From the NCBI GenBank assembly GCA_016178135.1, contig JACOTW010000007.1, positions 431 to 64,430 on the forward strand: a DNA stretch of 64,000 nucleotides, given 5' to 3'. The translations under genes were made by a program, and so were the position numbers. Shown in pieces: positions 12,566 to 47,556 of this stretch. Source of the DNA: Candidatus Saccharimonadota bacterium (lineage in GTDB: Bacteria; Patescibacteriota; Saccharimonadia; Saccharimonadales; JACOTW01). Under the pieces are notes generated by a model. It ran no database searches and was not told the origin of the DNA. It saw only the letters and a program-made list of their open reading frames with translations. The stretch's first letter is position 1, and each line of letters starts with the position of its first letter.

Positions 12566-13783
12566 TTATAGTGCTTTCAGTGTTTCAACCGGACTGACAC
12601 GGGCTGCCCGAACTGCCGGATACAAACCCCCGACAACACCCATGGCTACCCCGAAAAACAATACTCCAAATGTTAATAACGGGGTAATAACAGCTATGTC
12701 GCTGCCTAGATAATTATTTATAATTTGCCCGATACCTAGCCCAACAAAGAACCCGATCAATGCTCCGCTAAGCGATAAGGTGATTGATTCTATAAAAACA
12801 GTATATAAAATGTTGCGGTTGCTCCAGCCACCAGCTTTTATAATGCCGAATTCTTGCATCCGTTCCATAACGCTCATCAGCATGATAATCATTATAGAAA
12901 CACCTCCGGCTACTGCCGCGACAATCGCTATAACCAGTAGAAAATTGCGAAAAATATCCAGCGTGTTATTGATATCTCCCAGCAAGTCTTTAGATACGGC
13001 AGATTGAACCGGATTATCTGTACTGGATAGAGTTTGTTCAATTTCTTTAGCTAGCACGCTTACATTATCCGTACTGTCGGCTGTTACTCGAATACTGGTA
13101 ATTTGATCTGGCCTGAGTCCGGCTATTGTTCTGGCTGTAGCTATATTGGTTACTATATTACGATCATTGATGTCATTGCCAGTTTCAAAAATACCAACAA
13201 TAGTTAATGTTACTGTGTCAGGAGCGTTTTTTGGTGATCGAGCTCCTAAATTGTTTGGAGGAATCCTCGGAACTATTATTTTTTGTCCGATAGTGAGTTG
13301 CTGCCCGCCAGTTAACTTATTTTGATTAAGCAGACCCTTGCCTATTATGGCTTCATCGTCCTTAGTTATAGTATTGCCCTCTATAATCTTCACTGACGGA
13401 CCGTCCAGAGTTTTATCTATACCTAAATCAAGTCCTTGAAGCGGGGTTCCGATTGGGCTTTGACTTTCCAAAAACTGTTTGGGGATAGCAGTATTTATTT
13501 GCGGGGATAGTGACTTGATATGATGAAGATTTTTAATCTTTGCCAAATGACTTACGGGTAGGGGGTTGCCACCGCCTATAAAACCACCTATAACTGATGA
13601 TCCTTTTGCTGATATGACTACATCGCCAGCCACTTTATTTAGAGTATTGTTAAGTTCAGTATTCATGCCACTAGACAAGCTAAGCAAAACCGTCATTAAG
13701 GCCGTGCCGATACCGCTACCAGCAATCGCCAAGAATGCGATACCCTTACGGCGAAACCCATTTTTGATAGCAAATCTAAACAC
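12566..13783 (-). CDS. ABC transporter permease, FtsX/MacB-like
   Basis: An N-terminal TM segment, a large periplasmic domain and a C-terminal FtsX-type 3-TM bundle. It is adjacent to the ATPase. Confidence 0.8.
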   Translation of the reverse strand: MFRFAIKNGFRRKGIAFLAIAGSGIGTALMTVLLSLSSGMNTELNNTLNKVAGDVVISAKGSSVIGGFIGGGNPLPVSHLAKIKNLHHIKSLSPQINTAIPKQFLESQSPIGTPLQGLDLGIDKTLDGPSVKIIEGNTITKDDEAIIGKGLLNQNKLTGGQQLTIGQKIIVPRIPPNNLGARSPKNAPDTVTLTIVGIFETGNDINDRNIVTNIATARTIAGLRPDQITSIRVTADSTDNVSVLAKEIEQTLSSTDNPVQSAVSKDLLGDINNTLDIFRNFLLVIAIVAAVAGGVSIMIIMLMSVMERMQEFGIIKAGGWSNRNILYTVFIESITLSLSGALIGFFVGLGIGQIINNYLGSDIAVITPLLTFGVLFFGVAMGVVGGLYPAVRAARVSPVETLKAL

Positions 13784-13918: not shown

Positions 13919-16123
13919 ATGTCAGACAAATTATACAAACTTGGTCGCTGGTCATTCAAACGTCGTAAGTACGTGTTGAGCGGTTGGCTGGTGATTGTAA
14001 TGATTTTTGTTGGCTTAATGACTACTTTTCAACAGCCTATTTCGTCAGAATTTACGATACCTGGTACAGAATCTCAAGCAACAATTGATACCTTAAGTAA
14101 GAGTTTTCCGGCAGCTTCTGGCACATCTGGACGTATAGTATTTGCGACGCCACCAACAAAAACTATTACTGACTACCAGTCTGTGATTGATCAAACTGTT
14201 CAAGACATTAGTAAAGTTAAAAATGTGGCGGTTGTTCTTGGTCCTCTACAGACAAGAGCTATTTCGCCAGATGGACATGTCGCCATTGCTCAGGTTCAGT
14301 TCAGCGTTGAGCGTGGCGGCATTAACAAAGAAATGACCCAGGCCATTTTGTCGGCCCTGGAAGTCCCCCGTGCTACTGGTTTGCAAGCTGAAGTTAGCCG
14401 TGACATTCTCGGTCAACCCGAACCGGCCTTGGTTGGCCCTGGTGAAATCGTAGGTGTAATAATTGCCGCTATGGTGCTTATCGTAACGCTTGGTTCATTG
14501 GCAGCAGCCGGTATGCCGTTGGCAGTGGGTTTGGTCGCGGTATCTATAGGTGTTACTGGCATTTTTGCACTTAGTGGCGTCATTAGTGTTAGCTCTGTTA
14601 CGCCAGTTTTGTCGATTATGTTGGGGTTAGCCGTTGGTATTGATTACGCACTGTTTATCGTCACAAAATATCGTAAATATTTACTAGAAGGTATAACGCC
14701 GGCTGAAGCGGCTGGTCGAGCTATTGCTACTGCTGGAAACGCTGTTATTTTTGCTGCGCTAACCGTAGTCATTGCTCTATCAGGTTTAAGCGTTGTTGGT
14801 ATACCATTCCTGACAATCATGGGGCTAAGTGCGGCCGCAACTGTCGCAACCACCGCAACTGTCGCAGTTACACTTATACCGGCTTTGCTTGGTTTTGCGG
14901 GCAAACGGGTATTAAGTAAATCACGCCGAGCCGAAGTGATGGTAGCTAAACGTAAACACACCCGAGTTAAAGTTACCGAAGACAGTCATAAAACTTTTAG
15001 CTACCGTTGGGCCAAGAAAGTTACAAAACATCCACAAATAGCAATCGGTATGGTTTTATTTATGATAATTTTGATAGCTCTGCCAACAATAAAACTACGA
15101 TTGGCTTTTCCTGGTGACGGCGACGCGCCCATAGGCACAACAGAACGAACAGCCTACGATCTAGTTAGTAAAAGTTTTGGGCCAGGTTTTAATGGACCGT
15201 TGATAGTAGTTGCTGAATTACCAAACAAACTATCTCTAGAGCAAGCTCAACAAACAGCCGGACAGTTAGCTCAATCTTTAGCAAAAGTTGAAGGCGTACA
15301 AATTGCCTTACCTGGAGCCATAAATAAATCTAATGATATGGCCATCCTGCAACTTATTCCAAAAACTGGGCCTTCTGATAACGCTACAAAAGATTTAATC
15401 CAGCAAATACGAACAAACAGACAACAGATTGCTGGTAATTCTGGTGCCAAGCTGTCAGTAACTGGCGCAACGGCTGTGTCTATAGATCTTGACCAAAAAT
15501 TAGCTAAAGCTTTACCGGTTTATATCATAGTGGTGGTGGGCTTGTCTTTACTGGTACTACTTGTAGTATTTCGCTCGGTACTTGTGCCCGTCAAGGCGAC
15601 CCTAGGTTTCCTGTTGTCTTTATCGGCAACCTTAGGCGCGTTAGTAGCATTATTTCAGTGGGGCTGGCTGGGCATTTTCGATAAAACACCAGTGGTGAGT
15701 TTTTTGCCAATAATTGTTGTAGGTATTTTGTTTGGGCTAGCTATGGATTATGAATTCTTTTTAGTGTCTGGTATGCATGAATCCTACACTGTCAATAAGC
15801 ACGCTTCAAAAGAAGCCGTAATCAATGGTTTTGCTCATGGTGCCCGTGTGGTTACTGCCGCGGCTATTATTATGGTGGCGGTTTTCAGTGGCTTTATTTT
15901 TGGCGACGAGCCTATGATACGAATGATTGGCTTTGCTTTGGCGTTTGGTATATTGATTGATGCTTTCGTGATACGGATGACCTTGGTGCCGGCAGTTATG
16001 GCGCTTTTAGGCGATGCTGCTTGGTGGTTGCCAAAATGGTTGGCTAAAATACTACCAAATGTCTCTATAGAAGGCAATGAAGCTGTTTATGAGCTCGAAG
16101 ATAAACAGAATCAGCCCAAGTAA
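13919..16123 (+). CDS. MMPL/RND-superfamily membrane transporter
   Basis: Two 6-TM blocks separated by soluble loops, with a duplicated MMPL-type motif (AVGIDYALF in the first repeat, GLAMDYEFF in the second). I prefer the ATG at 13919, which follows an AAGGGGA RBS, over the ORF-track start at 13862. Confidence 0.85.
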   Translation: MSDKLYKLGRWSFKRRKYVLSGWLVIVMIFVGLMTTFQQPISSEFTIPGTESQATIDTLSKSFPAASGTSGRIVFATPPTKTITDYQSVIDQTVQDISKVKNVAVVLGPLQTRAISPDGHVAIAQVQFSVERGGINKEMTQAILSALEVPRATGLQAEVSRDILGQPEPALVGPGEIVGVIIAAMVLIVTLGSLAAAGMPLAVGLVAVSIGVTGIFALSGVISVSSVTPVLSIMLGLAVGIDYALFIVTKYRKYLLEGITPAEAAGRAIATAGNAVIFAALTVVIALSGLSVVGIPFLTIMGLSAAATVATTATVAVTLIPALLGFAGKRVLSKSRRAEVMVAKRKHTRVKVTEDSHKTFSYRWAKKVTKHPQIAIGMVLFMIILIALPTIKLRLAFPGDGDAPIGTTERTAYDLVSKSFGPGFNGPLIVVAELPNKLSLEQAQQTAGQLAQSLAKVEGVQIALPGAINKSNDMAILQLIPKTGPSDNATKDLIQQIRTNRQQIAGNSGAKLSVTGATAVSIDLDQKLAKALPVYIIVVVGLSLLVLLVVFRSVLVPVKATLGFLLSLSATLGALVALFQWGWLGIFDKTPVVSFLPIIVVGILFGLAMDYEFFLVSGMHESYTVNKHASKEAVINGFAHGARVVTAAAIIMVAVFSGFIFGDEPMIRMIGFALAFGILIDAFVIRMTLVPAVMALLGDAAWWLPKWLAKILPNVSIEGNEAVYELEDKQNQPK

Positions 16124-16126
16124 AAG

Positions 16127-16588
16127 ATGGTTAATTATTTGATGGCACAAGAAAATCGTCAAAGCGTACTACAGGAAGTCCTAGAAAACATAACTGCAAT
16201 TTACCGGCTTATGGGGAGCAGTAGAGATCAATTCTTGGCTAGTCTGGGCGTTAATAAGCCCCAGATAGAGGTTTTATTTTTGTTAAATGAGCATCCTATG
16301 AATATTAAAGCCATTGCCCAAAAACTTAATATTACCAGTAGTGCTGTTACCCAGATCGTTGGTAATCTGGTCAAAAATGGATTATTACTACGAGAGGCCA
16401 GTTCGACCGATAAGCGAGAAACTATGATACGCTTGAGTACTCAAGGAAAAAAACGTTTTCAAAAAATTAGAAATGTATATATGAAAAAAATGGAGGTGGT
16501 TTTATCTAATATTAAAGACGAGCAGTTACGAAGTTTAGAATTAATAACAAATCAGATTATAAAAATAATTGAGGACAAAGATGAATAA
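16127..16588 (+). CDS. MarR-family transcriptional regulator
   Basis: Winged-HTH pattern (IKAIAQKLNITSSAVTQIVGNLVKNGLLLRE...DKRE). Confidence 0.85.
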   Translation: MVNYLMAQENRQSVLQEVLENITAIYRLMGSSRDQFLASLGVNKPQIEVLFLLNEHPMNIKAIAQKLNITSSAVTQIVGNLVKNGLLLREASSTDKRETMIRLSTQGKKRFQKIRNVYMKKMEVVLSNIKDEQLRSLELITNQIIKIIEDKDE

Positions 16589-18260
16589 AGAATTAGAGCT
16601 ACCAAGCAGTGCCGCTGAATTTAAAAAAGGTTGGCGCAAGTGGATTCCGGTAGTGATTTTGAGTTTGGCATTAATGATAATAGTATTGGACACCACGGTA
16701 CTTAATGTTTCCCTAAAAACTATTACTCAAGACCTAGGTACTGACTTAAAAGGTATCCAGTGGGTCATAACGGCCTATGCATTGACGTTGGCGTCATTGA
16801 CTATTACGGGTGGTCGTATGGGTGATTTGTTTGGCCGAAAACGAATGTTTATGGTTGGGGCAGTTATTTTTGCCATTGGTTCGTACATAACGTCAATCAG
16901 TCATTCGGTTGGAATAATGGTTATCGGTGAATCTATTATAGAAGGGATCGGTGCCGCTATGATGATGCCAGCTACCGCTTCTCTGCTTGTGGCAAACTAT
17001 CGAGGGCGTGATAGAGCGATTGCTTTTGGTATCTGGGGTGGTATAGCTGCGGCGGCGGCTGGTCTCGGGCCTATACTTGGTGGGTGGCTAACGACCAATT
17101 ACAGTTGGCGTTGGGCGTTTAGAATAAATATATTTGTAGCCGCGGTTTTACTGCTGGGTTCGTTATTAATTGATGAATCCGAAGACGAAGAAGAAAAACA
17201 CCAATTGGATGTACTGGGTGTCGTTCTTTCGGCAACGGGATTATTGTCGTTGGTTTTTGGTGTTATACAGTCGGCACAATTTGGTTGGTGGATGGCTAAT
17301 GAGTCATTTTCTGTTTTTGGTCATGCTATTAATATTTTTGGGCTATCTGTTACTCCGCTAGCTATTGCTTTGGGTATAGTTCTGCTTGTTACTTTTGGAT
17401 GGTCGCAGTTACGACGTGAAAAACTTGGATTGACGCCTCTGGTATCCATGAGATTATTCCAAAATTCACAGTTTACGGCTGGCGCAACAGTAACCATGAT
17501 TTTGTCACTTGGGCAGGTAGGTTTAATATTTGCCATTCCGGTATTTTTGCAGTCTGTGCGTAATTTAGATGCTTTGCATACCGGATTAGCACTCTTACCG
17601 ATGTCGGCATCTTTATTGATTGCGGCCCCATTCTCGGCAATAATTAGCAAAAAGTTTTTGCCAAAACGAATTGTGCAAGTTGGGTTAGCTATCAATGCTT
17701 TGGCTGCTTTGGTGATTTGGCAAAGTATTTCTGTTACAGCTACACCAGCCACGTTAGCTCCTGGCTTAATATTGTTTGGGGCTGGTATGGGATTGGTAAT
17801 GGCCCAGGTTAGTAATTTGACATTATCGGCAGTATCGGTAGACGAAGCCGGTGAAGCATCAGGTGTCAACAACACCATGAGGCAAATTGGGTCTTCTTTT
17901 GGATCGGCAATAATTGGAGCGGTTTTGTTTATGACTTTAGCTACTGGCTTGTCTAATGGTGTCAACAAAAGTACGGTTATTCCAGAGCAGTTAAAACCAA
18001 AATTATCACAGGCTTTGTCTTCTAGGGCTTCATCGGTTGAATTTGGTGGTGTCAGTAAGGCAGAGGGCAAAGATGCTCCAAAATTGTCCGAAACCGTACA
18101 GAACGAATTAACCGCAATTGCCCACCAAGCTTCGGCTGATGGCAGTAAAAAAGCTATAATTTTGACCGGCATGTTTGCATTATTGGCATTTATTGCGGCA
18201 GCAAAATTGCCCAATTCTATAACAATAGAACGCAACGAATCTCTAGCATCCAGACACTAA
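16569..18260 (+). CDS. MFS transporter, DHA2 (EmrB/QacA-like, 14-TM) family
   Basis: Motif A-like GGRMGDLFGRKR, many TM segments, and an extended C-terminus. Confidence 0.85.
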   Translation: MRTKMNKELELPSSAAEFKKGWRKWIPVVILSLALMIIVLDTTVLNVSLKTITQDLGTDLKGIQWVITAYALTLASLTITGGRMGDLFGRKRMFMVGAVIFAIGSYITSISHSVGIMVIGESIIEGIGAAMMMPATASLLVANYRGRDRAIAFGIWGGIAAAAAGLGPILGGWLTTNYSWRWAFRINIFVAAVLLLGSLLIDESEDEEEKHQLDVLGVVLSATGLLSLVFGVIQSAQFGWWMANESFSVFGHAINIFGLSVTPLAIALGIVLLVTFGWSQLRREKLGLTPLVSMRLFQNSQFTAGATVTMILSLGQVGLIFAIPVFLQSVRNLDALHTGLALLPMSASLLIAAPFSAIISKKFLPKRIVQVGLAINALAALVIWQSISVTATPATLAPGLILFGAGMGLVMAQVSNLTLSAVSVDEAGEASGVNNTMRQIGSSFGSAIIGAVLFMTLATGLSNGVNKSTVIPEQLKPKLSQALSSRASSVEFGGVSKAEGKDAPKLSETVQNELTAIAHQASADGSKKAIILTGMFALLAFIAAAKLPNSITIERNESLASRH

Positions 18261-18272
18261 TGTGTTTTTAGG

Positions 18273-19793
18273 TTATTCGACGGTAATTGGCTGTAGATTC
18301 TTGAGCCCTGTTTTCACAAGCCTAACAATAATCCGGCCAACACGAATAGCTATCGGATCAATTATGTTGGCTGGTATGACTGTCTTGGTGCGTGAAAACA
18401 AAAACTCCTGTTGATTGTCTTCGTTAGCAAGTTCTGTCAAGTACTCAATTGCTTGCACCAAAAAATCAATGTCGTGCCGGACTATTAATTCATCTAAAGC
18501 ATCCTGGGGACTTCTACGTCCCAGCAACTCAAACAATCTTATAATTTTTTCTTCGATTTCTGGGGCTAATGGTGATGCTTCAGTAATACGCAGGTTATCT
18601 ACTGTAAAGAGTTGGTCGATTTCCTGTATCAGATTAGTAATTTCTTGCATTTCAGGAGTTTTGGAAGTTTCCTGGATTAATGTGATTAGTTCGGCTAGTG
18701 ATTTTTCGATTGGTTGCCGACTGGCTGTTTCACGGATTTCTTCCAGATTGCCGATAGTATCAATGACTTCCAAGGAGCCTAAGTATTCTTCAAATAGGCC
18801 CACATTTGGGGTTTCTATTTGTGTATCAAAATCTTGTTCTGTATCTGCAACCGTATCCGTCACGAATGTAATTAATGGTTCTATAGTCATTACTGGCTCG
18901 ATATCGTCAGTTATACTGGACTTACGCAAAGCTCCCCCATCCCCAGACCAACTAATCTCGGCTGATAGTGGCCTGTCTTCTTTCGATGTGGCTACCTCTC
19001 CTTCAGCCAAACCACTCCCAACTCGAGCTGATTTAGCCTGGGAACGGGCGATTTTGCGTAAGTCCAGTTTATTTGGCATTAGTTTGACCTCTTCCTTGAT
19101 AATTGCTGTTTTTGGGTCTATACGGCTAGGCGTGTCAGTGTCAGGAATAAGCTCTGGGCTATCCTCCGTAATGGAGTCTTTATTAATAATATTTGTTTTG
19201 CCAGGAATAATGACGAACTTTGTTGCAATTATGGGTGATTTGGATATTTGCGTTTTGAGGGTAGGGGCTGGACTATTGGTTTCTTCGATGATTACCCGAA
19301 TATCAGAAACTTCATTTTTCAGTACATTTTCATTGTGTATAATTTCATGCCTCAAAGACGCTGGTAAGATAGGGCTGGGTAAGATTTCGATACGTGCAGT
19401 TTGTTTACTTGTTATCTTTGGCTCAAATACTTGGCTGACCTTAGCGGGGATAGTTGTTTCCGTGTTTTTATTCACTGCCCGGGGTGCTTTTTCTATAGTT
19501 GCTTCCGGATGTTTTACCTCGGTTTTTAAATAAGCTTCGACGACAATCTTGAAGGCTACTTCGCCCAGTTTGGCAAGATAGGGACATACCTCGCGCAGTT
19601 GTGATTCCGGTATAGTCATACCATTGTAGGTAATTATGCGCTCGGTCTGAATATCCCCTGTTGTAGTGGCCAAATTTTCCTGGTTGATCGTGGTAGCTGT
19701 TGCCCCCTCGGCGGTCGTATCAGAATGTTCCGCTAACCACCAGATTTCATCGCCAAGTTCTGGCACGGCACTCATTTCTATCGTGTCGGGCAA
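18273..19793 (-). CDS. acidic hypothetical protein (506 aa) carrying an in-frame family-B element
   Basis: Long ORF with 4-nt spacing to the upstream ORF. The antisense 372-aa ORF is a Ser/Ile-rich mirror artefact. Confidence 0.6.
   Translation of the reverse strand: MPDTIEMSAVPELGDEIWWLAEHSDTTAEGATATTINQENLATTTGDIQTERIITYNGMTIPESQLREVCPYLAKLGEVAFKIVVEAYLKTEVKHPEATIEKAPRAVNKNTETTIPAKVSQVFEPKITSKQTARIEILPSPILPASLRHEIIHNENVLKNEVSDIRVIIEETNSPAPTLKTQISKSPIIATKFVIIPGKTNIINKDSITEDSPELIPDTDTPSRIDPKTAIIKEEVKLMPNKLDLRKIARSQAKSARVGSGLAEGEVATSKEDRPLSAEISWSGDGGALRKSSITDDIEPVMTIEPLITFVTDTVADTEQDFDTQIETPNVGLFEEYLGSLEVIDTIGNLEEIRETASRQPIEKSLAELITLIQETSKTPEMQEITNLIQEIDQLFTVDNLRITEASPLAPEIEEKIIRLFELLGRRSPQDALDELIVRHDIDFLVQAIEYLTELANEDNQQEFLFSRTKTVIPANIIDPIAIRVGRIIVRLVKTGLKNLQPITVE
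18914..19069 (+). mobile_element. family-B element, copy B2, inside a coding region
   Basis: Both TIRs are present (ACTGGACTTACGCAAAG... and ...TTTTGCGTAAGTCCAGT) and it is flanked by TTAT/TTAT. It is translated as LDLRKIARSQAKSARVGSGLAEGEVATSKEDRPLSAEISWSGDGGALRKSS. Confidence 0.85.
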
Positions 19794-19796
19794 AAT

Positions 19797-20015
19797 TTAC
19801 TCCTTTGGTGCAAGATCGGTTACGAGTGTTCTGGCTTCTTCCATCGTCAGACTACCCAATATATTTAATAAATGATTGGTGCCCTCTTTGTCTACGCAAA
19901 GTGGCAGAGCATCAGCAAGAGAGGCAATTTCATCAGTTCCTGGTTTGACAACTGGCATGTCGCCAACCTTGTCTAAGATTGCTTGTACGTGCGGCGTATA
20001 TTCCGGCGAGCTCAT
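19797..20015 (-). CDS. hypothetical protein (72 aa)
   Basis: ORF only. It is probably co-transcribed with the 506-aa ORF. Confidence 0.4.
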   Translation of the reverse strand: MSSPEYTPHVQAILDKVGDMPVVKPGTDEIASLADALPLCVDKEGTNHLLNILGSLTMEEARTLVTDLAPKE

Positions 20016-20181
20016 ATTAACAGTATGGCAAAGTTTATCCCAATCGACAACTCGTTCGACTTAGCTCATCTAAAATCTTTCCCAAATAGTATTCGTTAGC
20101 TCATGAATAATGTTTCCGAGATAGAAACAATAAAGTATCGGTTAGTTGATATATGACACTAAAAGACTCCTATGACTCCTA

Positions 20182-20470
20182 TAGAAGACTGTCTTCTAAC
20201 TGATTTGGAACCCTAATCACCAAAATTCTTCCCTGTTAAGGGTGAGACCCTTTTAATTCCTTATGTTAGGAGTCGAGAAAATGGATGGGGTGGTCAAGTC
20301 AGGTATTAAATATGAACTTGCCGATCACTAGTACGCAATAATCCCCTCTCTGTTAGAGGACTGTCCTCTAGATCCCCCCATAATGTGATAATTTTAAGGC
20401 GAGGCGGTGATTCTTTATCTGTAAATTTATAAACTTGCAAACTTCCCATCTGTTAGGGGACAGTCCCTTA
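20182..20470. repeat. four dispersed 15-17-bp palindromes of one motif family
   Basis: TAGAAGAC-T-GTCTTCTA (20182-20198), AAGGGT-GAG-ACCCTT (20238-20252), TAGAGGAC-T-GTCCTCTA (20354-20370), TAGGGGAC-A-GTCCCTTA (20454-20470). Three are preceded by CTGTTA. Confidence 0.75.
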
Positions 20471-20508
20471 AGCTCCCAAATTGTATATCCGGGCCTTATG
20501 GGCGGGGG

Positions 20509-22338
20509 TCAGGCTCCGCTGCCGAGACTGTTGCGGGCCAGGAATGCGAGCAGGCTTGCCTGCGGTGTCGCGGAGAAGTTGCTTGCGTCGCCGTGCGTGC
20601 CGGTCGATGTCAGCGTGGTGACCTCTGCGGCATACGGTGTGACGGCGGTCACGAACGCGTCGAGGTTGGCAGCCTTGTTCATCGTGACGTCATCTGTGCT
20701 GGCAATACCCCACACGGGCACCCCACGGAACGCGGTCCCGGCCATGAGTGCCGGGTCGTGGCCTGCGGTCTTGGCGGCGTAGTCTCCGCTGATTCCGTAG
20801 GCCGTGTTGATTCCAGCGGTGAACGAGGCGTTGGCGTAACTCGCGGCGAGGTTCGTGGCAGGGTAGATCAGCGCCAGAGACGCGGCGGGAACCTTGCGGG
20901 CCGCGAGGGTCAGCGTGGCAGACAGCCCACCCATGGACTGCCCGAGGTGATGCACCGGGCCGATGGCGAAGTGATCCCGCAGGTACTGGTAGAGGTTGAC
21001 GTAGGCGTTGATCCCGGCGTCATTGCCCCAGTTGTTCGATCCCGCAAGCGTGGATGCCACGATGTACCCGGCATCCACAAGGGACTGGATGAACGCCCGT
21101 TTGACAACCTCGGAGAAGGGGCCGTTGGAGTCCTCACCGACGCCGTGGTGGTAGATGACCACGGGGGACGGGGTGCGCGAGTCATAGGCTTTGGGCACGC
21201 AGACCCGCATAGTGTTCGCGGCTGAGTCCACAGCGGTGACAACCCAATCCGCCGCCCCCTCCACGTTGGTCCGGGGCACGATGGTGTTGATGCTTGTCGT
21301 GGCGGCGATGGGGCCAATGCTGGTTCCGGACAGTTGTCGGGTGTCGTTGAGCCAGTACGACGCGGACACGTAGTTGGCCGCTTCGGGGATCGCAGACCAC
21401 GGGATGCGGTCGGTCCACTCGACGGTATGTGCGGCGTCGATGAGCGACGCGGAGATGCCCAACTCGTCGGACTCGATGGTCACGGTGTAGGTGGTGGAGA
21501 CCGTGATGAGGGCGGAAGCACCGACCGCGTACATGTTGCTGGTCGGGTAGCCGGGGACGAAGGTGCTAGCGTTCCACCGCTTCGGCTGGTTGCCCAGCAG
21601 TCCCCACATGAGCGAGTAGGTGCCGTTTGCGGGGAGCGCCCCGGTGTTGGCCCACAAGCCGAACATGGCCCAATCGGTGCCGCCCGCGACAAAGTTGATC
21701 GTGCCAGTGATGCGAAAGCGGGAGTTCTTGGGGACGACGAATGCCCGACCGCCGCCGCCAGGGTTCTGTATGGTGCCGAGGCCGTAGACCTTGCCCGCGC
21801 TAACTTGGCTTTGGGTGGCGGGGTTCCATGCGGTGAGGTTGGCCCATGTCTCGTTGAACCCGGTCGCGTCGTCACGGTCACGTCGCAGCCGGGTCACGGA
21901 GTTGGAGCGGTCCCCGGCTGCGAGGTCACCCAAACGGCGCAACGCGAACTGGTCGGCAGCCGTCCCATATGTGGAATTAGCGACCGTGGTGTCAATCTTG
22001 GCGGCGAGGGCTGCAGCCTGTAAGGTGCTGACCGGCTTGGCCGAGTCGGCAGTGTTGTCGACGGATCCCAAGCCGAGCGTGGTTGGGGTAATGGCAGCAG
22101 CAGCACCAGCCACGTCAAAGTCACTTGTAGCATGAGTAGAGGCAGTACCAAGTCCAAGGTTAGTCCGGGCAGTAGGAGCGTCAGTAAGATCACTTAGGTT
22201 ACTAGACTTGTCGGTTTTACTAGCTAGAGTACCAGTAGCCTTAAGACTACCGTCTGGGTTGTGCTCAACTGCTAGGAAGTCATTTAGGATTGTACCCCAA
22301 GTACCATTATCTGAACCAGGAGTTGGAAGTCTCGCCAT
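20509..22338 (-). CDS. mosaic tail-fibre-like protein with a C-terminal alpha/beta-hydrolase (esterase/lipase) domain
   Basis: 609 aa. The N-terminus has LPTPGSDNGTWGTILNDFL and TNLGLG repeats. The C-terminus has VVIYHHGVGED, a GQSMGG nucleophile elbow and THGD. About 70% GC from about codon 85 onward. Confidence 0.8.
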   Translation of the reverse strand: MARLPTPGSDNGTWGTILNDFLAVEHNPDGSLKATGTLASKTDKSSNLSDLTDAPTARTNLGLGTASTHATSDFDVAGAAAAITPTTLGLGSVDNTADSAKPVSTLQAAALAAKIDTTVANSTYGTAADQFALRRLGDLAAGDRSNSVTRLRRDRDDATGFNETWANLTAWNPATQSQVSAGKVYGLGTIQNPGGGGRAFVVPKNSRFRITGTINFVAGGTDWAMFGLWANTGALPANGTYSLMWGLLGNQPKRWNASTFVPGYPTSNMYAVGASALITVSTTYTVTIESDELGISASLIDAAHTVEWTDRIPWSAIPEAANYVSASYWLNDTRQLSGTSIGPIAATTSINTIVPRTNVEGAADWVVTAVDSAANTMRVCVPKAYDSRTPSPVVIYHHGVGEDSNGPFSEVVKRAFIQSLVDAGYIVASTLAGSNNWGNDAGINAYVNLYQYLRDHFAIGPVHHLGQSMGGLSATLTLAARKVPAASLALIYPATNLAASYANASFTAGINTAYGISGDYAAKTAGHDPALMAGTAFRGVPVWGIASTDDVTMNKAANLDAFVTAVTPYAAEVTTLTSTGTHGDASNFSATPQASLLAFLARNSLGSGA

Positions 22339-22378
22339 GGAATATATACACCTCTTTTATGCTTATCCTTTATATGTG

Positions 22379-22408
22379 AGTTTACCCCCCCCCGAGGGTT
22401 TTAGTCAA
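22379..22408 (-). promoter_or_regulatory. putative promoter of the mosaic gene with a G9/C9 tract in the spacer
   Basis: On the minus strand: TTGACT (22408-22403), an 18-nt spacer AAAACCCTC+G9 (C9 at 22385-22393 on the plus strand), TAAACT (22384-22379), then GAGGTG 10 nt before the ATG. Confidence 0.45.
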
Positions 22409-22440
22409 GATTCTATGAGGGATTCTATGAGGGATTATGG
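22409..22440. repeat. tandem 12-mer GATTCTATGAGG, 2 full copies plus a partial third
   Basis: Direct tandem copies at 22409-22420 and 22421-22432, then GATTATGGG. They sit immediately upstream of the putative -35. Confidence 0.8.
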
Positions 22441-22591
22441 GAAAAGAATACTAGACAGAGGCCTTAGAGCCACCTGTCAAGGACGTACCTTGACATGTTA
22501 TGGAAAACTGCGTGTTAATTTTACTTAGTTTTCAGGGTGCCAATAGGACGTTCCTCTATAAGAGTTAAATCGTGTTTGTTTGGATTTGGGG

Positions 22592-23050
22592 TTAGATTTC
22601 TAGGCCGGTTACGTATTGATATGATTCTAGGATGAAGTTTTTTACTACTTCTAGTTCTTTTTTGTCCATGGGAGTATAGAGTAACACCATGCCTGGCAAG
22701 CCAACGTGCTTGGCAACGGGGTGGGGTTCTGCCCAATCGTGTTCTATGGCTTGCAGGGCGATTGGTTCTGGTAGGGGTAAATGTAAGCTGGCATCTGGAT
22801 GAATATGAGCAAATTCGCGCCCGACTAGCATGGTTTCTGGGTGGATGGCGTGGACGGATTCGTCCAGCCACAGAGCACGGGCACCTGGTACGGAGATTTG
22901 GGTGGGCCGTTCCGAGACGTTTGGCAATGAAAAGCAATAATTTGCCAATTTTTGCATGATTCCATCTGGCGGTATAACACCAATTTGGGTATGAGGCATG
23001 CCCTGATGCACTGTCGGTTTGTTGGGTTTTTTGAATAATTTATCGGTCAT
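22592..23050 (-). CDS. conserved hypothetical protein (152 aa)
   Basis: Motif REFAHIHPDASLHLPLP...DWAEPHP resembles a small 'luciferase-like domain' (DUF5519-type) family as I recall it. The assignment is tentative. Confidence 0.5.
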   Translation of the reverse strand: MTDKLFKKPNKPTVHQGMPHTQIGVIPPDGIMQKLANYCFSLPNVSERPTQISVPGARALWLDESVHAIHPETMLVGREFAHIHPDASLHLPLPEPIALQAIEHDWAEPHPVAKHVGLPGMVLLYTPMDKKELEVVKNFILESYQYVTGLEI

Positions 23051-23907
23051 TTGATGCTCAACAGTCCTGTTGTGGGTAGTTTGGTGAGGTCAACTGTGCC
23101 GTGGCTGACAAACGAGCGCATGCCCGCACTGCCGTAATCGTAAAATTTATCATTAAAATAGTCCACGCCTTCATCTGGATCAAGTAGTGCCATGGCTGCC
23201 AACATGGGCCGATAATGATCGTCGGTAGGCACTGCCAATAAACCAGCTTGTCCTGCTTTGTGTGGATTTATGAGGCTATCCAAATGATAATTATCTATGG
23301 CTTGTTTGGTGTGGTTGTCAAACTCCATAGCCCAATCAAAAATACCGTCGTCAAACCGCATTGCACGCAAATTATGCACGATATTGCCACTGCCAATAAA
23401 CAACACTCCTTTTTGACGCAGAGGCTTTAATTGTCCGAATATACTCAGCAGGTCTTTTAACGACTTAGTCATGTCTAAACTTATCTGCAAAACCGGCACA
23501 TCTGGCTCTGGTAAAAGATGTTTGAGCACGCTCCAGGTGCCGTGATCCAACCCCCAACTGCTATCTAGTGCTGATTCGTATTTGATTAACTCCAAACGTA
23601 ATAATTTGGCTAGTTCGGGGTCGCCCTTGGCATCATACGTAACCTTGTAGAGTTCATCAGGAAAACCGTAAAAATCATAAATAATCGGCTGTTTTGGCGC
23701 ATCAGTAATGTGCGTGCCATGCGTCAGCCAATGAGCACTGATCACCACCACGGCTTGTGGCTTGGGCAACTGTTGCCCCACGATTTGCCAATTATCTGTT
23801 ACGGGGTCGGTCTGAATGGCGTGCATTGGGCTACCATGACCCACAAACAGGACTGGCATTTTGGGGCTAGGTTGTAGGTGCTCTGCTAATTTTTTGAGCT
23901 TGTCCAT
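23047..23907 (-). CDS. class III extradiol dioxygenase (YgiD / 4,5-DOPA dioxygenase family)
   Basis: PVLFVGHGSPMHAI, ISAHW and GSGNIVHNL motifs. Confidence 0.8.
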   Translation of the reverse strand: MDKLKKLAEHLQPSPKMPVLFVGHGSPMHAIQTDPVTDNWQIVGQQLPKPQAVVVISAHWLTHGTHITDAPKQPIIYDFYGFPDELYKVTYDAKGDPELAKLLRLELIKYESALDSSWGLDHGTWSVLKHLLPEPDVPVLQISLDMTKSLKDLLSIFGQLKPLRQKGVLFIGSGNIVHNLRAMRFDDGIFDWAMEFDNHTKQAIDNYHLDSLINPHKAGQAGLLAVPTDDHYRPMLAAMALLDPDEGVDYFNDKFYDYGSAGMRSFVSHGTVDLTKLPTTGLLSIK

Positions 23908-23910
23908 GAG

Positions 23911-24219
23911 TTACTTAATCACGCTGGTTTTTTGAGAAAAAGCATTGATGGCGTTGATGATTGGCAGGACTTCTTTGCCGCGGTTGGTTAGGGAATACGT
24001 TACTGATATTTTGCTCTGGGTTTCTTCTGAACGGCGGATTAAACGCATATTTTCCAGGTTTTTGAGTCTATCGGTTAGGGTGGCGGGATTGAGATTGTCG
24101 ACATCTCGTTGTAATTGGCAAAAACGTTGTTCGCCCTCTCGTAGGGCGTCAATAATACGCAGTGTCCAATAATCGCCGATTAATTTTAGATTATCCGAAC
24201 AGTTTCCCGTGTCTTTCAT
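23911..24219 (-). CDS. HxlR-family transcriptional regulator
   Basis: LKLIGDYWTLRIIDALREGEQRFCQLQR...NPATLTDRLKNLE pattern. Confidence 0.85.
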   Translation of the reverse strand: MKDTGNCSDNLKLIGDYWTLRIIDALREGEQRFCQLQRDVDNLNPATLTDRLKNLENMRLIRRSEETQSKISVTYSLTNRGKEVLPIINAINAFSQKTSVIK

Positions 24220-24303
24220 AATTTTCTACTTGCTATAAAAATTAAAGTACTATTAAATGTATAGTACTTGGATAAAATATAACATTGGAGAGGTATAAGT
24301 ACA

Positions 24304-25239
24304 ATGAAAGCAGCCCAAATCAAACAATTCGGTCATGCCGATGCAGTAGAAATAGTAGACATTCAGCCGCCGGTCATTCAACCCGGCATGGTGTTGGTAG
24401 AGGTTAAAGCCGCCAGCTTGAACCCAATCGATACGGCCGTTCGTGAAGGCTACACACAATCATGGGCCCCTGTAGAATTGCCAGTAACCTTGGGTGGTGA
24501 TATTGCCGGAATTGTTTCAGAAATTGGAGATGGCGTTACGGGTTTTCAGGTTGGCGATAAAGTTTACGGTCAAGCCAGTGCATTGGGTGGTGGCAGTGGC
24601 GCATTAGCCGAATACGCGCTAACCAAGCCCGAACAACTTGGACTACTGCCTGAAAATATTGATTTTAATGAAGCAGCATCACTGCCATTAGTTGGCGTTA
24701 GTGCGTTACAGGGCCTGAAAACTCACATCAACCTACAGCCTGACCAAAAAATTCTAATCACTGGTGGAACTGGCGGGATAGGTACAGCGGCGATTCAAAT
24801 CGCCAAGAACTTGGGCGCGCATGTTGTTACGACGGTTGGAACTCAAGCAGTTGATTATGCCAAGCAACTTGGGGCAGATGAAGTGATTGATTATGCCACG
24901 CAAGAAGTTGGGACGGATCAAGAATTTGACGCGGTGTTTGACACGGTGGGTGGTGAAACATTCCAAAAAGCCCTGGCGATGGTAAAAAAGGGTGGCACGG
25001 CAGTTACTATGGCCGGTCAATCCGATGAAGCCAAATCACAAGAACTAGGTATCACCATTATTGGTCAAATGACCCATGTAAATACTGCCGCACTTGATGA
25101 ATTATCTGCCCTAATCACATCAAAGAGCGTAACACCTCATGTTGCCAGCACATTCACGTTAGATCAAGCCAAAGAAGCATTTCAAGCCCGAGAAAATGAA
25201 AGCATCATTGGTAAAGTAGTAGTAAGTATAAAAGATTAA
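24304..25239 (+). CDS. NADPH:quinone oxidoreductase / zinc-type alcohol dehydrogenase-like (MDR family)
   Basis: GroES-like N-terminus and the Rossmann motif ITGGTGGIGTAAIQIAK. Confidence 0.85.
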   Translation: MKAAQIKQFGHADAVEIVDIQPPVIQPGMVLVEVKAASLNPIDTAVREGYTQSWAPVELPVTLGGDIAGIVSEIGDGVTGFQVGDKVYGQASALGGGSGALAEYALTKPEQLGLLPENIDFNEAASLPLVGVSALQGLKTHINLQPDQKILITGGTGGIGTAAIQIAKNLGAHVVTTVGTQAVDYAKQLGADEVIDYATQEVGTDQEFDAVFDTVGGETFQKALAMVKKGGTAVTMAGQSDEAKSQELGITIIGQMTHVNTAALDELSALITSKSVTPHVASTFTLDQAKEAFQARENESIIGKVVVSIKD

Positions 25240-25242
25240 TCT

Positions 25243-25419
25243 ATGAGGGTAGCTATTTTGGGCGCTACCGGACCAACCATGTTAACCAATAAAGCCTACA
25301 AACTCGACACAAATCCCAACATGATGTCCAAAATTTCCAGAGCTAGCGTCGCGGACTTTACGCTAGGTCAATTATCAGATAAACGGTTTATCAAGAAATC
25401 AGTCATAATAACGGAGTAA
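25243..25419 (+). pseudogene. remnant of an NAD(P)-binding (NmrA/BVR-B-like) oxidoreductase
   Basis: 58 aa. The N-terminal MRVAILGATG is fused directly to a C-terminal ...ISRASVADFTLGQLSDKRFIKKSVII. The whole middle of the domain is missing. Confidence 0.5.
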
Positions 25420-25422
25420 ATC

Positions 25423-25674
25423 ATGTCAAAAATTACAATTTATAGTACGGCGACATGTGCCTACTGCAAAATGCTTAAAAGCTATTTGCAAAGCAAGGAT
25501 ATTGCATACCAAGAAATCCATGCCGACCAAGACCAGAAATTTGCCCAAGAATTATATGAAAAAAGCGGTCAGCTGGGCGTACCGTTTACTATCATTGAAA
25601 AAGATGGTGGAGTCGAAGAAAAAGTTCTTGGCTTCGACAGACACAAAATAGACTCAATCCTAGGACTGGCGTAA
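25423..25674 (+). CDS. glutaredoxin-like protein (NrdH/YruB type)
   Basis: ITIYSTATCAYCKMLKSYL (CxxC) and GVPFTII motifs. Confidence 0.85.
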   Translation: MSKITIYSTATCAYCKMLKSYLQSKDIAYQEIHADQDQKFAQELYEKSGQLGVPFTIIEKDGGVEEKVLGFDRHKIDSILGLA

Positions 25675-25707
25675 GCAAACTTTAATTTAAGATGAGGAGG
25701 GGTATTT

Positions 25708-26328
25708 ATGGAAGAGACTAATAAATTCCAACAATTAGCGAGTGCGGAACAACTAAAGCGTACCGTTGCCGCGCTAGAAACTAACGGTATATCCGCTGTT
25801 GTAGTTGAAACTGGCGCCGAGGCAAAGACTAAGGCGTTATCCCTTATAGAAAAAGGCACGAGTGTTATGACCGCCACCTCAACCACCGCCGATCAGATTG
25901 GTCTGGGCGAAGCTATTGAGGAATCCAAAGATTTTGTATCTTTGCGCAAAAAAATCACCGAATTGCCCGAGAGCGAACAGCGCGCGGCAGCTCGCCGTAT
26001 CAACAGCGCGCCCGACTATGTAGTTGGCAGTGCCAATGCCGTTACAGAAGATGGTAAGGTCGTTATCGCCTCTAATTCTGGTAGTCAGCTAGCGCCTTAC
26101 GCTTTTTCGGCCGCCCATGTAATCTGGGTAGTTGGTACACAAAAAATTGTCGCTAATCTTGACGAAGCCATGAAACGCATTGAGGAATATACTCTAAAGT
26201 TAGAGAGTGAGCGTTTGCAGAAAATATACGGTATGGACAGTGTTATTCGTAAAACGTTAATCATAAACAGCGAAGTTATGCCAGGACGTATCACTATGAT
26301 TCTGGTTAAAGAAAAGTTGGGATTTTAG
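25708..26328 (+). CDS. LUD-domain (LutC/YkgG-like) protein
   Basis: The size and the pattern ...GSANAVTEDGKVVIASNSGSQL...RITMILVKEKLGF are typical of DUF162/LUD proteins. Confidence 0.7.
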   Translation: MEETNKFQQLASAEQLKRTVAALETNGISAVVVETGAEAKTKALSLIEKGTSVMTATSTTADQIGLGEAIEESKDFVSLRKKITELPESEQRAAARRINSAPDYVVGSANAVTEDGKVVIASNSGSQLAPYAFSAAHVIWVVGTQKIVANLDEAMKRIEEYTLKLESERLQKIYGMDSVIRKTLIINSEVMPGRITMILVKEKLGF

Positions 26329-31561: not shown

Positions 31562-32020
31562 TTATTCTTGGCGATGCATAAAGAAATTCATCCATGCTTC
31601 AAAATTCTTCTGATACAAGGGCTTTTTTGGTTTTGGCTTATCGACGATTTTTTTATTAGGATCAGGTAAATCTATAGTATGAGCAAGTGCTACACCCCTG
31701 GGGACCAACACGAGCTTCTCACCCGGCACAGCCTTACCAAACTGTCGCCTGGTAGCGAGCTCTAGATATTGATCCGTATTGTAGTATTCATTACGCAATT
31801 TAAGGTTATTGTTTTCTAGTTCTTGTATGGTATTTTGCTGTTCTAGTTTAGAGATTTGTTTTTGCAAATCATAGTTTGTCTGAATAATTCCTACGCTACT
31901 CCAACTAACCAGTAAAACCAGCACGCCAAACACCATAAATCCAAGGAAACGTACATCTCGTATCTGTTGCCAAATTGGACTTTTATAGTAGTTTTTTATT
32001 TTTTTTAGCACTAACATCAT
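31562..32020 (-). CDS. septum formation initiator (FtsB/DivIC-like)
   Basis: One TM segment, a coiled coil (LQKQISKLEQQNTIQELENNNLKLRNE), then YLELATRRQFGKAVPGEKLVLV. Confidence 0.65.
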   Translation of the reverse strand: MMLVLKKIKNYYKSPIWQQIRDVRFLGFMVFGVLVLLVSWSSVGIIQTNYDLQKQISKLEQQNTIQELENNNLKLRNEYYNTDQYLELATRRQFGKAVPGEKLVLVPRGVALAHTIDLPDPNKKIVDKPKPKKPLYQKNFEAWMNFFMHRQE

Positions 32021-32072
32021 TATACCAAATTGTTGCGAATCTGGTTTACCATAAGCGAACGTGTGAGTCGAA

Positions 32073-32759
32073 TGGTGGGGATGGCAGGATTTGAACCTGC
32101 GACCAATCGGTTATGCGCACCACTACAACTTTCGTTGCCTCTTTCGAGTTTGTAGTCCGGACTGTCTCTTCATCCGCATATACGGATGCCTGCCATACAG
32201 TCTCTACACCTTCCCAGACTTTATAAAACTCTGGGCTTGGCTCGGGATTGCCAAGGCCGAAGCCGTAGGGTTCCCCGAATTTGACAAGATATACTTATCG
32301 GTTACCCGATAAGCAGCCCTTTTACTGTTTGACCTATCTAAGTTAACGTAATGGTTATGAAGAAAGAGTCTAACTGTAAAGTTTGTGGCGATGAACTGAC
32401 CGGAAAGCAAACGCTTTTTTGCTCAATAAAATGCAAAAATGCGTTGCATCAATCCTATCCTTCGCAAAAAAAGCGAGGAATAGAGCGTAAGCTACATTTC
32501 GTCAAAATGCTTGGCGGAAAATGCTCACACTGCGGTTACTCAGCCAATCTTGCCGGTTTGGCATTTCACCATTTAGGCGGCAAGGAATTTCAGCTGGATG
32601 TTCGTTCGCTGTCAAACCGAAAGATTGAACCCATTCTCAAAGAAGTTGCAAAATGCAAGCTTCTCTGTCACAACTGCCATGCAGAAGTGCACAATCCAGG
32701 CTTAGACTTAGCCAAATTGTCAATTGAGCCGACTGCTCTAACCACTGAGCTACATCCCC
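32073..32759 (-). tRNA. tRNA with CAU anticodon (Ile2/Met type) interrupted by a group I intron
   Basis: The 5' exon is 32759-32727 and the 3' exon 32115-32073. Joined, they give a 76-nt cloverleaf GGGGAUG...CGGCU|CAUAACCG...CAUCCCCACCA with a perfect acceptor stem and encoded CCA. Confidence 0.85.
32116..32726 (-). ncRNA. group I intron (IC3-like core) in the anticodon loop
   Basis: The 5' exon ends in U and the intron ends in G. The core strings GUCAAAUUCGGGGAACCCUACGG, GGCAAUCCCGAGCCAAGC and GAAGGUGUAGAGACUGUAUGGCA match the conserved core of bacterial tRNA introns such as the Azoarcus tRNA-Ile intron, as I recall it. Confidence 0.8.
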
Positions 32760-43248: not shown

Positions 43249-43890
43249 TTATTCATTCTCCTTGTGTTTTTCGGTAGTACTTAATTGCATTCTAATCTGT
43301 ACTAGTGTCGGTTTGATGGTACCGTTTATATAAGTCTTTATGTCCGCAGCATCTTTAGCTAATTTGGCCCTGGATACACGAGCTGTTTCTAGAGAAGCTT
43401 TGAAGCCCGTGGGATCAGCCGCGCAATCCATCGTGCCAAGATCAGCAACGGTTTCTTTGTAGGCAGCCATATCTGTCTTAAAGGTTGTTATCATACCCTT
43501 AAGAGTAGTGATTTGTGGGTCAAGGGTTGTAGTATCAACGTTGTGGTCTTTTAGTTTGGTAACAAGTTTGGTCAGTTGATTGGTCAGATTGTCATAGATG
43601 TTATTGCGACTGGTTTGAAGCCCTTGAATTCGTCCTGACAGGTTATTTACTGATACTTGGCCATTTTTACATTTTGATTTTAGTCGTGATTGTTCAAGTG
43701 TTGTTAGTTTAATTTTCAGCTCGGCCTTACGTTCTTTTATACGATCCGCTAACACTGTTTTACTCTCTGCTGTCTGATCACTGGCAGTGTCCATATTCGT
43801 CAGTGCGTGAGCCTGACTGACTACAGGCACAAGTGTCAATATTGACATCATGAATGTTGTTTCTAGAACTAATTTTATACGTTTTTTCAT
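43249..43890 (-). CDS. secreted coiled-coil protein
   Basis: A signal peptide followed by heptad-rich sequence with two Cys residues. Confidence 0.5.
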   Translation of the reverse strand: MKKRIKLVLETTFMMSILTLVPVVSQAHALTNMDTASDQTAESKTVLADRIKERKAELKIKLTTLEQSRLKSKCKNGQVSVNNLSGRIQGLQTSRNNIYDNLTNQLTKLVTKLKDHNVDTTTLDPQITTLKGMITTFKTDMAAYKETVADLGTMDCAADPTGFKASLETARVSRAKLAKDAADIKTYINGTIKPTLVQIRMQLSTTEKHKENE

Positions 43891-43965: not shown

Positions 43966-44250
43966 CTAGGAGGTTTTACTGGCCAACCAAGTAATAATAA
44001 GTGCCGCTACAACGTAATTTGGTACCAAAATAAAAACACTTGTCCAAAAACCATAACTACTACTGTAAAGATAGATCATGACCGCCACTAGATAAGCCAG
44101 ATAGGGTATATATGTTAACCAGCCTTGCCATGTGTTTGGCAAATAACTCCATCTAACTTTTATAAACCATTTCTTATTATTATTGCTTTTCTTCATATAC
44201 AAAATTATACACGAGTTAATAGTAATACCATCGTCCCAGGCCAACGACAT
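43966..44250 (-). CDS. small membrane protein
   Basis: Two TM segments. The start is probably the internal Met. Confidence 0.4.
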   Translation of the reverse strand: MSLAWDDGITINSCIILYMKKSNNNKKWFIKVRWSYLPNTWQGWLTYIPYLAYLVAVMIYLYSSSYGFWTSVFILVPNYVVAALIITWLASKTS

Positions 44251-46228: not shown

Positions 46229-46376
46229 TTGATAAACCTATCGCAAAATCTCCGTTTCCAGGGCGAATCAGCTCGAGCAAAAACAGTTTTATCTGGAAGG
46301 TACGTAAAGAGAAGAAAAACTGTTTGCAGCTGAGTTTAGTCAGTCTGAGGACGAGCGATTTCGCGACAGGTTCAGT
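46229..46376 (-). mobile_element. family-B element, copy B7 (reverse orientation, degenerate left end)
   Basis: ...CTATCGCAAAATCTCCGTTTCCAGGGCGAATCAGCTCGAGCAAAAACAGTTTT...GAGCGATTTCGCGACAGGTTCAGT. Confidence 0.75.
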
Positions 46377-46707: not shown

Positions 46708-47556
46708 CTAACTAATTATTAGTGAGGTTAGAATTGCTTTTATAGGGTCAACAAAATTTTTATCATCCAGCATACTACTCGGAACTCCTACGGATGCTCC
46801 CGCTTCTGAACAGCTACTATCCGAACATTTAACAAAAGCCACACTAATAACCGGCTCTATTGGCAAAATGTCGGCCTTTGGTATGGCCTGTGCCAATTGA
46901 TAACCAGTATCACCTGTTATAAACATAGCATCAATCGTGGTTTCCGAAGTCGTTGAGCCAGCAAGATGCAAAAAACTTAGAAACGTCTGTCCTCGTTGAT
47001 TTTGAGCGGGCTGGGTATAAGTAATCTTTTCTGATGCTCGGGTGGCCAACGCATTGCCCTTGTCAAATTCCGGAAATTTTTGCTGCTTGGTACGAATCAT
47101 AATAATGATTTGCCCGTTAATATCCTGACCGCCTCTTATATTTTTAAATTTGTTGCTGGGCGAACGTAGGATAAGCTGACCATTACCCTCGACATCTGTT
47201 AGAACCCAATCTTCTGGATAATCCATAGACAGACCGAATTGACCGGATATGTAGTGTTTAGATGCGACGGTCGGCTTGGATGATGTTTCTGATTGTCTGA
47301 CACTCGTTGGTTGAGGCTTTGATTCTTGTGGTCCTGTCCGTACAAAAAACCAATATCCAATTACGCCTATAACAACCAAGGTACCAAAAACAAATATCAA
47401 GCCCAACGAACGTTGACTACGCAGTTTTGATCTATACTTCGGGGGAGTCAGATCTGCAAAATCACGCGTTTCTTCCAAAGAATCCCTATAAGCATCTCTA
47501 CCTTCTGGTGTACGCGGACTATCTGGACGCGGTGTGTCGTGGTAATCCATAACCAT
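46708..47556 (-). CDS. membrane-anchored hypothetical protein
   Basis: An N-terminal cytoplasmic tail, a TM segment and an extracellular domain. Confidence 0.5.
   Translation of the reverse strand: MVMDYHDTPRPDSPRTPEGRDAYRDSLEETRDFADLTPPKYRSKLRSQRSLGLIFVFGTLVVIGVIGYWFFVRTGPQESKPQPTSVRQSETSSKPTVASKHYISGQFGLSMDYPEDWVLTDVEGNGQLILRSPSNKFKNIRGGQDINGQIIIMIRTKQQKFPEFDKGNALATRASEKITYTQPAQNQRGQTFLSFLHLAGSTTSETTIDAMFITGDTGYQLAQAIPKADILPIEPVISVAFVKCSDSSCSEAGASVGVPSSMLDDKNFVDPIKAILTSLIIS

Follow-up and report, generated by a model that had tools for sequence, protein, structure and literature searches.

The gene examined here is a 609-codon ORF on the minus strand (20509-22338, ATG at 22338) of the window, which is the whole 64-kb stretch of DNA (64,000 nucleotides) that was analysed. 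Its neighbours are ordinary cellular genes (MMPL, MFS, HxlR, LigB dioxygenase, luciferase-domain protein, and alcohol dehydrogenase), and a megablast of positions 20000-24500 against GenBank phages gave no match; the window is chromosomal Candidatus Saccharibacteria DNA. Upstream of the gene lie a homopolymeric tract and the hexamers of a predicted promoter, and the features of the locus are given below by window position:

20509..22113, minus strand: acquired C-terminal module of the gene, 534 codons (GC 64.9%, GC3 0.82)
22114..22338, minus strand: native N-terminal module, ~75 codons (MARLPTPGSDNGTWGTILNDFL...; GC 46.7%, GC3 0.29)
22349..22354, minus strand: GAGGTG, Shine-Dalgarno-like, 10 nt ahead of the ATG at 22338
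22360..22366, minus strand: ATAAGCA, a promoter-proximal motif frequent in Saccharibacteria leaders
22379..22384, minus strand: -10-like hexamer TAAACT, immediately adjoining the tract (from the sequence and a promoter scan)
22385..22393, minus strand: G9 homopolymer (C9 on the plus strand), read from the sequence; G10 in a sister haplotype
22385..22402, minus strand: 18-nt spacer aaaaccctcGGGGGGGGG (aaaaccctc followed by G9) of the predicted promoter
22403..22408, minus strand: -35-like hexamer TTGACT, 5/6 matches to TTGACA
22409..22432, strand not assigned: perfect tandem 12-mer GATTCTATGAGG, two copies, adjoining the -35 (repeat in the sequence)
22472..22498, strand not assigned: inverted repeat with 11-nt arms and a 5-nt loop, after the upstream luciferase-domain gene

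The run of nine C at 22385-22393 described in the original prediction was recovered on the plus strand and reads as G9 on the coding (minus) strand, and the order TTGACT, 18 nt, TAAACT and then GAGGTG is likewise present in the sequence of that strand. The intergenic region had also been called AT-rich, a description that did not hold up, with a GC content of 40.7% vs. 42.9% for the window. A mononucleotide tract of ~7 nt or longer between the -35 and the -10, as in porA-type promoters, is found here as G9 in a predicted promoter, with transcription predicted to start at ~22371-22373 on the minus strand. G10 would lengthen the spacer to 19 nt, and G8 would shorten it to 17 nt.

Apart from this C9, no G/C run in the 64-kb window exceeds 6; in a stretch of this size, 0.16 runs of at least 9 are expected (analytic estimate, first-order Markov model) and runs of at least 6 are depleted (5 seen vs. 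13 expected under the Markov model). The two hexamers match at 9/12 positions, which is the threshold of the promoter scan, and the scan returned 7 sites in a 5-kb region vs. 5.1 in shuffles; TTGACT/TAAACT is the only sigma-70-like coding-strand site that it found in the 253-nt intergenic region. Taken from the window alone, the tract and promoter features are near chance and weak, and the significance of the tract comes from the comparative data and not from the window. The tandem 12-mer beside the -35 may be a regulator site or an UP-like element, and a third copy of the pentamer CCCTC from this repeat region occurs within the promoter spacer. There are no Rfam matches at E ≤1 in 22000-22800, and the fold z-score around the tract is 0.23. 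Because the inverted repeat at 22472..22498 is followed by no T-run, and no terminator-like sites were found in the scanned region around the tract, read-through from the upstream operon is possible.

The gene downstream of the tract is a mosaic. Horizontal acquisition had been claimed for the gene as a whole, and this stands for the C-terminal 534 codons, while the first 75 codons have the low GC3 of native sequence. On sequence comparison, the predicted promoter, the tract, and the N-terminal domain are part of a resident gene family and not of the acquired module. The C-terminal module is tail-fibre-like and carries an alpha/beta-hydrolase esterase domain with a GQSMG nucleophile motif; profile searches matched it to tail-fibre, virion-structural, and esterase profiles, and both the GQSMG nucleophile elbow and an HGD motif are invariant across its homologues. 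Two metagenomic proteins share 55-61% identity with the high-GC part, and one of them adjoins Gp34_trimer and YadA-stalk genes on a 64%-GC phage-like contig. Among isolated phages, 9/10 tblastn matches of the high-GC part were in Arthrobacter and Gordonia phages, in which the matching proteins are annotated as esterase, tail fibre, or minor tail protein. That the product is a surface protein, as originally supposed, can at most be inferred, as the protein sequence shows no signal peptide or membrane anchor; it may be exposed and interact with a host or phage, given its tail-fibre and esterase homology and the receptor-binding-protein domains of the family.

The ATG at 22338 is the true start, as shown by homology of the first 36-75 residues to >500 family members. 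The NCBI annotation (P0001, 534 aa, “alpha/beta hydrolase”) begins at V76 instead, exactly at the GC-content junction (22114/22113). The public annotation of the gene thus starts 75 codons late, omitting the N-terminal domain and hiding the promoter context, which is a caution to annotators. Downstream of the mosaic gene (20170-20480, minus strand) we observed four short palindromes (GGGACtGTCCCcTAACAG, GAGGACaGTCCTCTAACAG, GGGTctcACCCtTAACAG, and GAAGACaGTCTTCTATAGG), each followed by TAACAG or TATAGG, that may be protein-binding or recombination sites bordering the acquired segment.

Several other elements were observed elsewhere in the window. The minus-strand region 32021-32341 contains a group I intron (RF00028, 72.6 bits; 32135-32341), after which comes sequence resembling the 3′ half of a tRNA that would have a CAT anticodon (...gcgcataaccgattggtcgcaggttcaaatcctgccatccccacca); ARAGORN made no tRNA call in this region, and no matching tRNA 5′ half was seen just upstream of the intron. 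An identical 21-mer, GCTCGAGCTGATTCGCCCTGG, is found at 46258-46278 (minus strand), 47591-47611 (minus strand), and 63819-63839 (plus strand), within a ~60-nt repeated element (..aaactgttttYgctcgagctgattcgccctggRaacggRgattttgcga..) with no Rfam match. At least two genes (44216-46165 and 46708-47556) have this element upstream, the third copy is near the end of the window, and a related sequence (GATTTTGCG..AGTCCAGTATAAT) is upstream of 52162-52818.

The window protein belongs to a Saccharibacteria family defined by a “MARLPxPGxD” N-terminal domain, which is phage receptor-binding-protein-like and has modular C-termini. The family motif spans ~36 residues (M-x-RLP-x-PG-x-D...WG..LN..L...H..DG.LK), over which the window protein is 67-89% identical to 23 family members. 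There are >576 family loci in species-representative genomes, nearly all of them Saccharimonadales, and >578 in JGI metagenomes, with only 22 in viral contigs and at lower identity. The C-terminal module varies across the family: it is an alpha/beta-hydrolase in the window gene, and elsewhere a GDSL esterase, pectate-lyase beta-helix, polysaccharide deacetylase, BppL_N, or phage tail repeats. One family locus (L003) had its upstream region excluded as chimeric; positions 1-290 of L003 (ENA contig k119_48353) contain the Nextera transposase adaptor AGATGTGTATAAGAGACAG twice, marking a chimeric assembly.

Other assemblies of the locus were found by exact look-up of the adjacent luciferase-domain protein, and matching the pattern AAAACCCTC(G+)TAAACT gave the tract length in each:

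Window: G9
Logan SRR12113417 contig: G9; 100% identical to the window over 4116 nt
NCBI GCA_040960765.1, contig JBFOMR010000010.1: G10
Logan SRR25508618 contig: G10; recovered as one contig from 3 samples and matching the NCBI contig exactly
Logan SRR25508638 contig: G10

The variation in tract length that had been anticipated for this locus was seen as G9 and G10 in near-identical haplotypes, that is, between populations. The window is a sister haplotype of GCA_040960765.1 and not the same record, and the extra G of the latter maps at 22394. From 23523 to 17871 (5.65 kb) the tract indel is the sole difference between the two, and over the longer stretch from 23523 to 15797 (7.7 kb) only two SNPs add to it, while 54 positions differ between 23524 and 26010 (~2% divergence). 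Across 15797-26041, the comparison with GCA_040960765.1 (L001, L188, and L193) goes from ~2% divergence to near-identity, which suggests that the segment bearing the mosaic gene recombined or swept recently. The spacers of the two haplotypes are 18 nt (G9) vs. 19 nt (G10), and the flank-constant tract difference among close relatives that marks porA-type loci is found here between populations only. For the window haplotype, G9 comes from one run and the window's own assembly. In at least four runs of one series the assemblies show G10, and the majority allele is therefore stable there.

Homopolymer lengths are error-prone, and all five independent Logan short-read contigs (L189-L192) end 11-12 nt past the tract (window 22373/22374), so the tract does disturb assembly and the G9/G10 difference could in principle be a sequencing or assembly error. 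We consider this very improbable, since each length is tied to its own flanking haplotype and was recovered by two assemblers; the runs that yielded G10 are also separate ones, and the tract is found within long contigs with unique flanks. The final 31-mer of the Logan contigs is centred on the tract and begins 10 nt upstream of it, for G9 and G10 alike. These contig ends were rejected as evidence of heterogeneity, as loss of tract-spanning k-mers at low coverage fits them better than a variant further downstream or a bubble from differing tract lengths does. Neither 20106-22372 nor the mosaic gene is covered by the short-read contigs that were recovered, no Logan contig with the downstream 47-codon ORF is on record, and an exact-pattern search for the tract flanks in JGI metagenomes returned 0 matches. 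In the closest relatives as judged by the LigB neighbour (91% and 78% aa; L084 and L085), a small membrane-protein gene stands in place of the family gene, so they offer no orthologous promoter for comparison.

The tract could also be read as C9 inside a plus-strand ORF (22208-22528, 106 codons, TTG start) that is present in the mechanical ORF list, with slippage then acting by frameshift in a coding tract. This ORF runs antisense to the family gene across its conserved 5′ end, the TTG start of the ORF has no ribosome-binding site, and the G10 allele of the sister haplotype would frameshift the ORF, which together leave a coding role for the tract with a negligible probability.

In 158 family upstream regions, TTGnnn and TAnnnT are most often 17 nt (36 cases) or 18 nt (23 cases) apart, over a background of 6-14, with 6 cases at 19 nt and a flat coding control, and extended -10 sites have a T where the first -35 base falls with a 17-nt spacer. 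Together, the spacer peaks and the extended -10 signal indicate that these organisms use sigma-70-like promoters. In the family, 18 nt (G9) is thus a used length and 19 nt (G10) is not enriched. The original prediction stated that the loss of one G would give the optimal spacing, and 17 nt is indeed the modal spacer of the family.

The most enriched word upstream of family genes is ATAAGCA (or its complement in GCTTATGnTAnAAT), at ~125-fold. We rejected ATAAGCA/GCTTATG as a family-specific operator, as it is also found at unrelated promoters in the window, including the upstream regions of 12566-13783, 31562-32020, and 43249-43890; it looks like a general Saccharibacteria promoter-proximal motif, of which no published description was found. 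ATAAGCA/CATAAG and GCTTATG flank the -10 on either side, sometimes both as an inverted repeat (L004-L165 and window promoters).

The motif usually follows the -10 by 0-8 nt in the family and lies 12 nt after TAAACT at the window locus, whereas it is only 2-4 nt after TATAAA/CATATA (22369-22376). This raises a different geometry, in which TATAAA/CATATA is the true -10 and the tract sets its distance to an upstream element, as in Bordetella fim; that element could be TTGACT or the tandem 12-mers, possibly as an activator site, and the perfect repeat does adjoin the -35. TATAAA, though, has no -35 at 16-19 nt (the sequence there is CCTCGG) and no TG extension, and the promoter scan yielded the TTGACT/TAAACT pair alone. 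In another family promoter (L015, described below), the polyG directly adjoins TACACT, with AAGCAT 7 nt later. We therefore find this geometry quite unlikely and retain TAAACT as the predicted -10, with the tract in the spacer.

Placement of a homopolymer in the promoter spacer, as first described for the window, is also seen ahead of members of this gene family in three other Saccharibacteria MAGs. The 160 non-viral family loci (441 kb) contain just three G/C runs of at least 8, namely the C9 of L010, the G10 of L015, and the G9 of L044, and each lies ≤120 nt upstream of a family gene start. This zone makes up 4.3% of all bases and 23% of non-coding bases (p ~0.012 for 3/3 tracts in the zone with long runs restricted to non-coding DNA). 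All three tracts are enclosed by TTGnnn-18-TAnnnT:

L015: TTGACA-ctcccacc-G10-TACACT
L010: TTGTAT-tta-C9-ggtcta-TACAAT
L044: TTGCGG-G7ctatattgccc-TACAAT, with the G9 run overlapping the -35

Only 5% of 9-nt windows (-150 to -20) in the other upstream regions are similarly enclosed, giving ~1e-4 for three of three. Two of these promoters precede genes for a GDSL esterase (L044) and for a pectate-lyase-like beta-helix (L010), predicted products of the same functional class as the window esterase. Long-tract promoters are rare, with 3/160 family loci (~2%), and none were found in 80 metagenome loci. The geometry of the window and L015 promoters is identical, with the polyG abutting TAnACT, though homology between them is not claimed (41% identity outside the tract, z = 1.7, rank 13 of 158), and a search with the L015 protein for other assemblies of this G10 analogue returned its own contig alone. 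The window and L015 also have an equal distance of 40 nt from the -10 to the start codon. In all four promoters with a tract of at least 9 (window, L010, L015, and L044), the spacer to the best -10 is 18 nt, vs. the family mode of 17 nt; G-tract helical geometry and selection for an intermediate state are both possibilities for this shared length.

Within one MAG, L010 and its paralogue L061 share a conserved block (CTTGTATT.A-C9/C6-..TCTATACAATAGAATCATAAGCACTAA) within diverged flanks, which spans from the -35 to just beyond the ATAAGCA motif and holds C9 in L010 vs. C6 in L061, for spacers of 18 vs. 15 nt. On a smaller scale, L137 and L146 have C6 and C5 after TGCTATAAT in promoters that are otherwise conserved, and L021, L049, and L069 have the homopolymers G6T5, T10, and T7 in otherwise conserved promoters. 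The paralogous leaders of the latter three (MAG DATKGP01) end in ..gcgattctgtatatATG, and their homopolymers, immediately ahead of this sequence in the region ~15-35 nt upstream of the ATG, would sit in a TTGnnn-16/17-GATTCT spacer.

Another explanation of the tract at the window locus is neutrality, where a hypermutable tract mutates quickly without mismatch repair, its length has no effect on expression, and it is tolerated in non-coding DNA. The promoter at the window locus is a prediction at the scan threshold, and G9 and G10 both persist as majority alleles, as neutrality would allow. Across the family loci, however, G/C runs of at least 6 are ~4.5-fold rarer than expected (36 seen vs. 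161 under the Markov model), as are runs of at least 7 (9 seen vs. 42 expected), and with shorter runs so depleted the long promoter tracts stand out and look retained rather than accidental or tolerated. Neutrality also does not account for all three other long tracts in 441 kb falling inside TTG-18-TAnnnT spacers of the same gene family, or for conservation of the core promoter around the tract in the L010/L061 block. We judge a neutral tract to be unlikely.

Among the closest known systems is Neisseria porA, where adding or removing a single G between the -35 and the -10 alters transcription (PMC3899988). Like N. meningitidis porA, the window locus has a G/C homopolymer of ~9-11 nt within a -35/-10 spacer, here a predicted one; the porA product is exposed and interacts with the host, as that of the window gene may. 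The locus differs in that porA encodes a porin, whereas the gene here encodes a phage-tail-fibre-like esterase in Patescibacteria/Saccharibacteria, which are reportedly without MutS/MutL, and its switching is a prediction. The poly-C promoters of opc and fetA are of the same kind as porA. In Bordetella pertussis fim2/fim3, a poly-C upstream of the -10 sets the distance to the BvgA activator site, and the tract here would likewise set the distance from the -10 to an upstream recognition element, which is a good -35 hexamer rather than an activator site.

The variable surface proteins of Mycoplasma hyorhinis (vlp) are a multi-copy family with a poly-A in every vlp promoter spacer. The likeness extends to a multi-copy family in a small-genome, host-dependent bacterium with a promoter-spacer homopolymer, but a long G/C tract is found in only ~2% of the family loci here. 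Campylobacter jejuni and Helicobacter pylori are without MutS/MutL-type mismatch repair, and their G/C tracts of at least 8 are hypervariable. Tract length and the reported lack of this type of repair are shared with the present case, but their tracts are mostly coding and act by frameshift, whereas the one described here is in a predicted promoter. In Haemophilus influenzae hifA/hifB, the number of TA repeats alters the -35/-10 spacing (PMC3899988). Changes in repeat number thus shift spacer length in both, although hifA/hifB has a dinucleotide repeat in a bidirectional promoter and the window locus a mononucleotide tract in a unidirectional one. In its sequence features, the locus fits the porA/opc/fetA type of promoter-spacer contingency locus well, and both its phylum and its gene family are new for this type.

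On balance, we think it probable, if only modestly so, that the G9 is a slippage-prone tract in a sigma-70-type promoter spacer, with gain or loss of a G altering expression of the esterase gene. In this model, a TTGACT-N18-TAAACT promoter would drive a chromosomal Saccharibacteria gene for a phage-receptor-binding-protein-like esterase, and slipped-strand mispairing during replication would add or drop one G of the tract. The slippage would go uncorrected, as Saccharibacteria are apparently without MutS/MutL, neither of which Jaffe et al. (2021) found in them (PMC8406219). The -35/-10 spacing would then shift between 17 nt (G8), 18 nt (G9), and 19 nt (G10), raising or lowering transcription, and the population would carry cells or strains with differing amounts of the esterase protein. 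In such a switch the hexamers would form the functional promoter, a 19-nt spacer would be weak or off, and changes in the tract would be reversible; the role proposed for the protein is likewise a prediction.

Host-adapted pathogens classically use promoter homopolymers for phase variation, and we found no report in the searchable literature of homopolymer-based or other phase variation in Saccharibacteria/Patescibacteria. The locus is, on its sequence features, the first credible candidate that we found for a slippage-driven expression switch in Saccharibacteria. For the question of how ultra-small bacteria attached to other bacteria vary their host-contact proteins, this locus is a concrete case, with two natural alleles (G9 and G10) in named public read sets and a promoter model that gives a predicted used state (18 nt) and unused state (19 nt).

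Saccharibacteria live on Actinobacteria as episymbionts, and the esterase module that follows the native Saccharibacteria head in the mosaic gene is related to tail esterases of phages infecting Actinobacteria, the phylum that Saccharibacteria parasitize. More tentatively, and in our view less likely than not, Saccharibacteria may keep multi-copy receptor-binding-protein-like enzymes with modules swapped from phages of the host phylum, a subset of them under contingency-switch promoters with G/C tracts, and so hedge which host-envelope-targeting enzyme is expressed. If so, the Candidate Phyla Radiation would have its first described contingency locus, and phase variation would be tied to the host attachment or host range of these bacteria.
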